Shown piece by piece: positions 31,384 through 31,464 of a stretch of 43,246 nt of DNA (positions within the stretch are counted from its first letter, which is position 1; each line of letters begins with the position of its first letter). Source of the DNA: a virus; IMG/VR virus record IMGVR_UViG_3300001687_000037. One strand, written 5' to 3'. The notes under the pieces are model-generated. The model did not search any database. It saw only the letters and a list, made by a program, of their open reading frames with translations, and had not been told where the DNA came from. The translations under genes were made by a program, and so were the position numbers.

Positions 31384-31417
31384 AGGGTCTGGGTAATTCC
31401 AGACCCTTTGTCTTCTT
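31384..31417 (+). terminator. Rho-independent terminator (AGGGTCTGG-gtaatt-CCAGACCCT + TTGTCTTCTT)
   Basis: Perfect 9-bp GC-rich stem, 6-nt loop, T-rich tail, 20 nt after MVP stop. Confidence 0.8.
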
Positions 31418-31437
31418 ATGAAGTTTTTTTGGGAAAA

Positions 31438-31460
31438 TACCGATAAGTAATTAAGGAGGG
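31438..31460 (+). promoter_or_regulatory. Copy 5 of conserved promoter-like motif (TACCGATAAGTAATTAAGGAGGG), preceded by TGAAGTTTTTTT
   Basis: Motif consensus, immediately after terminator. Confidence 0.55.
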
Positions 31461-31464
31461 GATT

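Follow-up and report, generated by a model that had tools for sequence, protein, structure and literature searches.

The locus considered here raises the question of what kind of signal stands, repeatedly and in nearly the same form, directly in front of the ribosome-binding sites of a virus. The stretch of DNA analysed, which is referred to below as the window, comprises all 43,246 nucleotides (nt) of the IMG/VR virus record IMGVR_UViG_3300001687_000037; it has a G+C content of 33% and nearly all of its genes are on the + strand. An earlier note made from this sequence described seven copies of a long element fused to the Shine-Dalgarno sequence, one of them in the span 31384-31464 before an RNA ligase gene, and interpreted them as a promoter class specific to this phage. 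The repetition is genuine and the element clearly defined; as judged from its sequence, it is a set of bacterial-type promoters that match the consensus of the sigma-28 (FliA/SigD/WhiG) class.

The seven copies (positions 44, 1316, 2545, 21598, 31438, 33416 and 39451) are all present, all on the coding (+) strand and all intergenic. The sequence TGCCGATA is found in five of them, and its place is taken by TGTCGATAAGTAA at position 43 and by TACCGATAAGTAA at position 31438. When the seven sites are made into a position weight matrix (PWM), as the earlier note had suggested, and the window is scored with it, they reach 36-47 bits and the next best position only 7 bits (3 bits for the best other position on the + strand, 7 bits on the - strand); this matrix is self-trained, but the gap in score is nonetheless very large. 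The motif CCGATAW occurs seven times on the + strand, six times within the element, and not once on the - strand, the mean expectation from dinucleotide shuffles being 3.4 for both strands together, and the fuller pattern GA[AT][GC]-N15-[GA][CT]CGATA[AT] matches on the + strand exactly the seven sites. The bias towards intergenic positions upstream of genes is also complete, as all seven copies lie in gaps between + strand open reading frames (ORFs). These gaps amount to ~1 kb in total, or ~2.4% of the window, and the chance that seven of seven copies would fall in them is roughly 5e-12.

When the copies are aligned on CCGATA, two blocks are seen instead of one long composite. The downstream block is T-G-C-C-G-A-T-A-(A/T), and either GAAG or GATC is present in every copy exactly 15 nt upstream of its G. 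The upstream block, YGA(A/T)(G/C/T)A, is located at a fixed distance (-35 to -30) and exists in two flavours, viz. flavour A (YCGATYA), found in three of the seven window copies and in 9 of 15 sites when two phages are considered together, and flavour B ((Y)TGAAG), found in four of the window copies. Because the element consists of two blocks and the spacer between them is not conserved between related phages, the description of it as a single composite of 40-45 base pairs (bp) does not hold. The tract of 6-7 T that had been reported for every copy, and which forms the beginning of this spacer, is present in five copies, but the copies at 44 and 39451 lack it and have A-rich spacers. Similarly, the reported distance of 5-15 nt to the start codon does not apply to the copy at 2545, which is ~36 nt away from its best start (ATG 2597, after GGAGGG).

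The proposal that the element represents a promoter class is supported, as is its gene-upstream and strand-specific placement. However, its sequence is not a novel one specific to the phage, as the -10 block does not differ from the consensus GCCGATAA/T of sigma-28/FliA/SigD, which has been known for a long time. In the open complex of P. aeruginosa sigma-28 at the fliC promoter, the corresponding elements are (-15)GCCGATAA(-8), in which GC is the extended -10, and (-36)TCTAAAG(-30) (PMC12784957), and the SigD motif of B. subtilis is TAAA(-35)-N15-GCCGATAT(-10) (PMC5200910). The match was assessed with a FliA PWM derived from the 22 strongest E. coli FliA sites in chromatin immunoprecipitation sequencing (PMC4203485), which involves no training on the phage. 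With the -10 part of this matrix, the seven sites rank within 1-8 among the 86,474 positions of the window (both strands), with scores of 10.4-14.9 bits in comparison to a leave-one-out median of 13.2 for the E. coli sites. With the -35 part and a spacer of 16, the four flavour-B copies score 5.8, 5.8, 5.8 and 2.2 bits, where the E. coli median is 6.0 and only 2% of background positions reach 3 bits. In comparison to sigma-28 promoters in general (TAAA-N15-GCCGATAA/T), the extended -10 sequence TGCCGATA(A/T) is identical, and the upstream block, present in all of the phage sites, lies at the same distance as the sigma-28 -35 element, with TGAAG or CAAAG standing in flavour B in place of the consensus TAAAG.

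Further evidence comes from the remainder of this genome and from a related phage. A contig from the Joint Genome Institute (JGI), L014 (8.2 kb), overlaps the last 5,029 nt of WOR8_10000141, a White Oak River contig of 98,020 bp (IMGVR_UViG_3300001687_000013), with 0 mismatches and then enters the start of the window. As L014 bridges the two, they belong to one genome, whose length is 141.5 kb or more. Genes for the large terminase, the major head protein, the tail sheath and the baseplate hub are located on the minus-strand arm of WOR8_10000141 and identify the phage as a myovirus. Upstream of the window, two additional copies are present on the + arm in L014, one at 2144 (CCAAAGA ... TGCCGATAT), inside the divergent control region, and one at 3175 (TCGATTG ... 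TGCCGATAA), so that the non-structural arm of this genome has nine copies (seven in the window and two upstream of it). No copy was found in the ~23 kb of the structural arm that was covered, and GCCGATAAGTAAWTA is present in only one stored chunk of the 98-kb contig.

The related phage is represented by the Logan contig SRR31326378_360244 (64.8 kb, 28% G+C), which is syntenic with the window; protein identity between the two phages is ~57% (56-59%), and for the core genes 56-69%. Sites of the same class are found in it at L007 5237, 5646, 7142, 8295 and 8835 and at L003 8925. The site at L007 8295 precedes the HNH gene of the relative and is thus orthologous to copy 2 of the window. That at L007 8835 precedes a 131-amino-acid (aa) gene, the ortholog of the window gene 2582-2977 that follows copy 3, and its spacer has diverged, and the site at L003 8925, of flavour B, is found in the part of the relative that matches the surroundings of copy 5, upstream of the gene for RNA ligase. 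Among the 15 sites from the two phages, A-33, T-16 and CCGATA are invariant (15/15 each), G-34, C-14 and a purine at +1 are each present in 14, G-15 is present in 11, and there is no C in positions -7 to -1. The spacer, on the other hand, is not conserved, as orthologous sites show (TTTTTTTAATTTA vs AAAGAAGATAATA). Blocks that are conserved and keep their distance, with the sequence between them free to vary, are typical of promoters of the sigma type and not of RNA elements. The flavour of the -35 block is also retained at corresponding sites, with A in the region of the small genes and HNH and B further downstream; the exception is the very first promoter, which is of flavour B in this phage and of flavour A in the relative.

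In our assessment it is quite probable that these are two-block promoters read by the multisubunit RNA polymerase of the host together with a sigma-70-family factor of sigma-28 specificity. In such a mechanism, sigma regions 2 and 3 would read the extended -10 element T(-16)GCCGATA(A/T)(-8), region 4 or a partner protein would read YGA(A/T)(G/C/T)A at -35 to -30, and the C-free, A/T-rich stretch from -7 to -1 would melt. If the +1 position is placed 8 nt past the last A of GCCGATAA, which is the register reported in PMC12784957 for the P. aeruginosa fliC open complex, then the predicted starts are G59, G1332, A2561, A21614, A31454, A33432 and G39467, and +1 falls on the A or G with which the Shine-Dalgarno sequence opens. 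Initiation at this purine would produce mRNAs with leaders of 11-15 nt for six of the seven copies and of 36 nt for the copy at 2545. The suggestion that transcripts begin at the Shine-Dalgarno sequence thus agrees with the predictions of the best model, but the -10 assignment from which it had been derived does not. The class would serve the non-structural arm (replication, nucleotide metabolism, RNA repair and HNH) and not the head/tail arm, and the copy at 31438 would restart transcription directly past an intrinsic terminator.

Several points weigh against this interpretation. The three flavour-A copies fail the -35 matrix of E. coli sigma-28 at every spacer (-1.7 to -10), and the canonical T at -34 is present in none of the sites. 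The start sites are predictions from register alone. The contiguous conservation from -16 to +6 in this phage exceeds what a sigma factor needs, and this uniformity could partly be due to a recent duplication of promoter-ribosome-binding-site cassettes. A sigma factor of the phage was also looked for, and none was found in the window in scans with Pfam, PHROGs and NCBIfam, permissive thresholds included, which covered the ORFs of at least 150 aa, each against at least one of these collections (the CoaD-like ORF 25141-25689 by eye). In addition, there was none in the Pfam annotations already available for 33 kb of the relative and none among ten larger proteins of the structural arm (PHROGs only). 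In total this search covered ~100 kb across the two phages; ~75 kb of the 98-kb contig, and any sequence beyond the right end of the window, lay outside its range. Among the proteins of no assigned function, no candidate resembles a sigma factor, and a phmmer comparison of E. coli FliA with all ORFs was too insensitive to be informative (the positive control in the phage L004 gave only E = 6.8). The ORF 37407-37970, which has a weak YlxM-like match (E = 0.028), was rejected as sigma-related because it is membrane-anchored and Pfam did not confirm the match.

The identity of the sigma factor has to be considered separately. A phage-encoded factor of sigma-28-like specificity is the answer that we favour, tentatively and with not quite even confidence. 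The great uniformity of the sites and the non-canonical nature of the majority -35 flavour would point to such a factor, and phage-encoded group-3 sigmas (FliA/SigF/SigG-like) are present in 113 phage records. In SPO1, gp28, which clusters with sigD/sigH/sigI, drives the middle genes (bioRxiv 10.1101/2021.11.12.468384), and the sigma factor of the present phage, encoded beyond the sequence covered, may have the role that gp28 has at the SPO1 middle promoters. If, however, these promoters are read directly by the host's own flagellar sigma (FliA/SigD), then the non-structural programme would operate only in cells whose motility regulon is active, e.g. after adsorption to flagella. This we consider possible but rather unlikely. 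The -10 block is identical to the bacterial consensus, inclusive of the extended T-16/G-15/C-14, and the -35 block of flavour B is near-canonical. The class also supplies the first + strand promoters beside the divergent control region (L014 2144 in this phage, L007 5237 in the relative), the non-structural arm shows no other early promoter that recurs, and no sigma gene was found in the ~100 kb covered in the two phages. Further, fully canonical TAAAG-N15/16-GCCGATAA promoters occur on some unrelated viral contigs, e.g. twice before terS-terL-portal in L035, and the flxA promoter of E. coli is FliA-dependent, its expression falling from 280 to 2 in a fliA deletion (PMC4203485). However, 9 of the 15 sites have a -35 sequence, CGATYA, that is unlike TAAA, besides the lack of T at -34 already noted, the sites are far more uniform than those of host sigma-28 regulons (table in PMC4203485), and a minor sigma that is heterogeneously active would be a risky dependence for replication genes. 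In addition, the sequence covered amounts to less than half of the genome, so that a phage sigma may still be encoded elsewhere, and this reading presupposes a host that has flagella and a sigma-28. The stronger proposal, in which the whole non-structural programme of a large virulent-type myovirus, beginning with the first promoters at the divergent control region, is wired directly to the flagellar sigma of the host, productive infection is gated by the motility of the cell, as might be expected of a phage adsorbing to flagella, and CGATYA is read with the help of a phage co-factor, appears somewhat less likely again.

Apart from a factor of sigma-28 specificity, other readers of the element were considered. 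If a sigma-independent phage RNA polymerase (T7-like single-subunit or other) reads the block from -16 to +1, starting at the G/A before GGAGG as in T7 TATAGGGAGA, then the contiguous conservation in this phage from -16 to about +6 and the A/T-richness of -7 to -1 would be expected, as would the purine start followed by G-rich sequence, which recalls the layout of T7 class III promoters. However, no RNA polymerase family was matched in the protein scans of the window (the smallest ORFs being outside the scan), a second block at -35 to -30 (G-34 and A-33) beyond a variable spacer is atypical of such promoters, which in the T7 type have one contiguous block of ~23 bp extending through +1, and the 9/9 identity to the sigma-28 extended -10 would have to be a coincidence, so that such a polymerase is improbable. 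Slightly more doubtful is a function at another level, in which the block would be the operator of a regulator that binds DNA or, in the RNA, a translational operator or processing site overlapping the ribosome-binding site. The fusion of the block to the Shine-Dalgarno sequence would suit such a function, and in flavour A the presence of CGAT at both -35 and -13 makes a direct repeat 22 bp (two helical turns) apart. However, flavour B is without this repeat, and the seven regions fold no better than shuffles (z-scores -2.7 to +1.3, i.e. near zero) and have no common fold; nor was there any Rfam match at gathering score in the window. Moreover, in the copy at 2545 and its ortholog at L007 8835 10-25 nt lie between the block and the Shine-Dalgarno sequence although both blocks are retained at their usual spacing, and in the sigma-28 register most of the block would not be transcribed.

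The earlier note had taken the central hexamer TAAGTA/TATAAT as the -10 box. If this were correct, these would be housekeeping sigma-70/SigA promoters with TTGAAG/TTGATC as the -35 element, and perfect TATAAT is indeed present in two copies (21604 and 33422), the upstream block being TTGACA-like in some (TTGAAG, TTGATC). In this case, however, the TTGAAG/TCGATC block is 20 bp upstream in every copy, whereas the consensus scan accepts 16-18 bp, and none of the seven sites is among the listed sigma-70 scan matches with the GA block as -35. The invariant TGCCGA would also be left idle and unexplained, with its TG 4 nt and not 1 nt from the hexamer. In the relative the hexamer varies (TAATAT, TAAGAT, TAAATA) but CCGATA is constant (15/15), the second position of the -35 block is C in 7 of the 15 sites, and initiation would take place within the Shine-Dalgarno sequence or past it. 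Housekeeping-type matches are furthermore not enriched (85 vs 97 expected; 92 vs 96 expected), and this assignment is very improbable, the most so of those to which a likelihood was given. The spacing of TGAAGT-N16-CGATAA resembles the SigW type, and due to this compatible spacing an ECF-like (extracytoplasmic function) phage sigma may be the reader; however, an ECF (group 4) promoter as such, with its spacer of ~16 bp, was rejected, since the diagnostic AAC (GAAC) of the -35 block is replaced in all sites by AAG or ATC, and the -10 core is CGA-TA and never CGT. An archaeal TATA-box, a reading prompted by the low G+C content and the total lack of CTAG, was dismissed because the start would lie beyond the start codon and the phage has a lysozyme-like protein and GGAGG ribosome-binding sites.

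The individual copies, all on the + strand, are as follows. Copy 1 (23-72, flavour A) has CCGATCA at 23-29, the extended -10 TGTCGATAA at 43-51 and the Shine-Dalgarno sequence GGAGGG, and it is followed at ATG 73 by the gene for a 118-aa protein of no assigned function. In copy 2 (1296-1344, flavour A), TTGATCA at 1296-1302 and TGCCGATAA at 1316-1324 are followed by GGGGG and by the likely ATG 1345 of an HNH endonuclease gene. Copy 3 (2525-2596, flavour A) combines TCGATCA at 2525-2531 with TGCCGATAA at 2545-2553, and GGAGGG precedes what is most likely the start, ATG 2597, of a basic protein of ~126 aa (phrog_2267). The remaining copies are of flavour B. Copy 4 (21578-21624) has CTGAAGA at 21578-21584, within which the preceding gene has its stop codon TGA; TGCCGATAT follows at 21598-21606, and GGGGG stands before GTG 21625 of a P-loop kinase-like gene. 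Copy 5 (31418-31464) consists of ATGAAGT at 31418-31424 and TACCGATAA at 31438-31446, with the Shine-Dalgarno sequence AGGAGGGG before ATG 31465 of a gene for a T4 Rnl1-type RNA ligase. For copy 6 (33396-33446), CTGAAGT is at 33396-33402, TGCCGATAT at 33416-33424 and AGGAGG before ATG 33447, which begins an 88-aa Cys-rich protein, followed by a lysozyme-like gene (33725-34342). In copy 7 (39431-39477), TTGAAGA at 39431-39437 falls inside the end of the upstream ORF, TGCCGATAA is at 39451-39459 and GGGAGG precedes ATG 39478 of the gene (39478-40911) for a CCA-adding enzyme with an HD domain. By eye, a possible degenerate member of the class is seen at 16051-16103, before the gene starting at 16104 (CTGAAA ... 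CCCGAACA ... AAGGAG); its spacer is 2-3 nt longer and the matrix does not pick it up.

The span 31384-31464, from which the question arose, holds copy 5 as described earlier, but it also holds the intrinsic terminator of the upstream gene (31383-31408), and the order within it is terminator, repeated element and ribosome-binding site of the RNA ligase gene. The terminator, on the + strand, has an 11-bp stem (AAGGGTCTGGG/CCCAGACCCTT) and, with its T-rich tail, extends over 31383-31417, where it abuts copy 5; the hairpin is the best terminator-like site within 20001-40000 and ends a gene for a vault-protein-like product. That product (28914-31364) is 816 aa long and, besides a vault repeat and a match to SPFH/Band-7, has the shoulder domain of the major vault protein (PF11978, E = 4e-27). 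It is not present at the corresponding place in the relative, and the strong terminator follows it.

Among the genes of the window are those for two helicases, a DnaB-like protein, a primase, both subunits of topoisomerase II, a 5'-3' exonuclease, thymidylate synthase, kinases, the RNA ligase and the CCA-adding enzyme. By analogy, this is the kind of gene set that is served in large phages by early or middle promoters, and the class would be expected to act at such a time. The enrichment of RNA-repair functions that had been seen in the genes directly following the copies is not demonstrable, as every copy is followed by a unit of several genes, and the HNH endonuclease, small proteins of no assigned function and a unit with the lysozyme-like gene belong to the set as well. 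A DnaJ-like protein with a zinc-finger domain (34691-35386) and a YqeY/GatB-like protein (41816-42229) form, with the CCA-adding enzyme and the RNA ligase, a gene set related to translation and RNA repair. At 24573-25689, a gene for CoaE (dephospho-CoA kinase, PF01121, E = 8e-26) adjoins the CoaD-like ORF 25141-25689, recognised by eye only from its FDPITLGHLD motif, and the pair would be coenzyme A biosynthesis genes; of the two, CoaE was the one searched for in the available sequence of the relative, where it gave no match. The last ORF (42579-43156) is frameshifted relative to the ENA assembly of the same phage, being 84 aa in the window and at least 192 aa in ENA; the ENA version has the look of a PD-(D/E)xK nuclease, and the frameshift is either an assembly indel or a strain variant. 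Independent assemblies (JGI, ENA and Logan) all break within ~300 nt of both ends of the window (L014, L005, L011, L013), and the last 50 nt of the window have no match in IMG/VR. The tetranucleotide CTAG is absent from the window, where ~124 occurrences are expected from base composition, and from the other available pieces of the same phage (L005, L009, L010), and it occurs only 5 times in 33 kb of the relative, vs 22-62 times per 10-21 kb in other phages with an RNA ligase. This lack suggests strong counter-selection, e.g. by a CTAG-specific restriction system. In the relative, three hairpin-forming inverted repeats of ~30 bp are seen by eye in a row at L007 4620-4830 (e.g. GATGAATTTTCTC-CGAA-GAGAAAATTCATC), within a 770-bp A/T-rich region between the structural and non-structural arms, and their role may be that of bidirectional terminators, of operators or of an origin. 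The relative also has a large terminase (L007 585-3530) of 981 aa, which contains an intein with a LAGLIDADG domain; its homolog in the present phage (L002 1300-3117) is of 605 aa, with 68% identity across the flanks.

With regard to the distribution of the element, a 6-kb megablast against the phage collection gave no match and a 49-nt blastn search with the element gave only chance-level matches; the element is thus not a known repeat of sequenced phages. Scans of viral contigs, metagenomes and genomes for the long composite recovered the phage's own 98-kb contig and two other matches, viz. a 3.7-kb contig of higher G+C without the -35 block and one promoter in a metagenome-assembled genome of a Chloroflexota. 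The long composite is thus essentially confined to this lineage. The Chloroflexota promoter (L019 471-530, JAJRUC010000157.1), the only match in a bacterial genome, is a canonical TAAA-N15-GCCGATAA promoter with a chance GTAATTA discriminator and gives no information on the host. Exact GCCGATAAGTAAWTA is never found more than once per IMG/VR stretch, and three are present in the window alone. An IMG/VR search for relatives of the RNA ligase found none, and in more distant phages with an RNA ligase or helicase (L004, L008, L017, L018) the promoter class is absent, even though L004 has an ECF-like sigma.

The promoter type itself (sigma-28/FliA/SigD) is already known. In the literature searched, however, there was no description of the sigma-28 class as the main promoters of the non-structural arm of a large phage, nor of the second -35 flavour or of a start fused to the ribosome-binding site. 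The promoters of phages usually fall into three groups, viz. those for the host housekeeping sigma, those for phage-specific sigmas with sequences of their own and those for phage RNA polymerases, whereas in this environmental phage of at least 141 kb the universal -10 element of the flagellar sigma is found in the promoter class that chiefly serves replication and RNA repair. If the sigma factor is a phage-encoded one of the FliA/SigD type, then a defined promoter set would become available for the many uncharacterised group-3 sigmas of phages; if it is the motility sigma of the host, then infection would be linked to the motility state of the cell. In either case the element is a compact, sequence-defined cassette of promoter and ribosome-binding site. 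Its two -35 flavours may be tolerated variants of one -35 element, and their existence also suggests a second layer of control.

In comparison to known sigma-28 promoters, the predicted start, 8 nt past the last A, is in the same position as in the P. aeruginosa fliC open complex. However, the genes served by the phage class are those of replication, nucleotide metabolism and RNA repair in a myovirus of the lytic type and not of motility, the spacing in flavour B is one base longer (the usual value being 15 bp, with a range of 14-16), most phage sites have YCGATYA at -35, and the A/T-rich discriminator is almost invariant, with the start fused to the Shine-Dalgarno sequence. Other uncultivated phages (IMG/VR L035/L022/L040, L030/L063 and L024) also show TAAAG-N15/16-(T)GCCGATAAG with a discriminator of the GTAAATA type. 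However, these are unrelated phages in which the -35 is canonical and the promoters stand before packaging (late) genes, in one or two copies per locus vs nine here, and none of them is fused to a Shine-Dalgarno sequence. In L035 (6460-7240, IMGVR_UViG_3300001242_000119), two copies of TTAAAGTTT...GCCGATAAG are located before small genes, a tRNA-like sequence and terS-terL-portal; no cultured relative of phages of the L035 type was found. The E. coli gene flxA lies in the cryptic prophage Qin. Its sigma-28 promoter TAAAGATTTTTTTGTGCATGCCGATAGT (PMC4203485) serves a single accessory gene, in contrast to the main promoter class of a replication arm. The present phage differs from T4, which uses sigma-70 or gp55 elements (TATAAT, TATAAATA), and no homologs of MotA, AsiA or gp55 were detected here. 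However, the early and middle (MotA/AsiA) promoters of T4 have a common -10 and differ at -35/-30, like the two flavours described here, and the T4 late promoters and their ribosome-binding sites form compact units in tiny intergenic gaps, as does this element. The middle consensus of SPO1 (AGGAGA ... TTTNTTT) is unrelated in sequence to the phage element, and no gp28-like gene was found in the sequence covered here. In its overall strategy, however, SPO1 (gp28 for middle and gp33/34 for late genes) would provide a similar case, as there also a large myovirus of the Firmicute type sends the core polymerase of its host, for the replication genes, to a uniform class of promoters.

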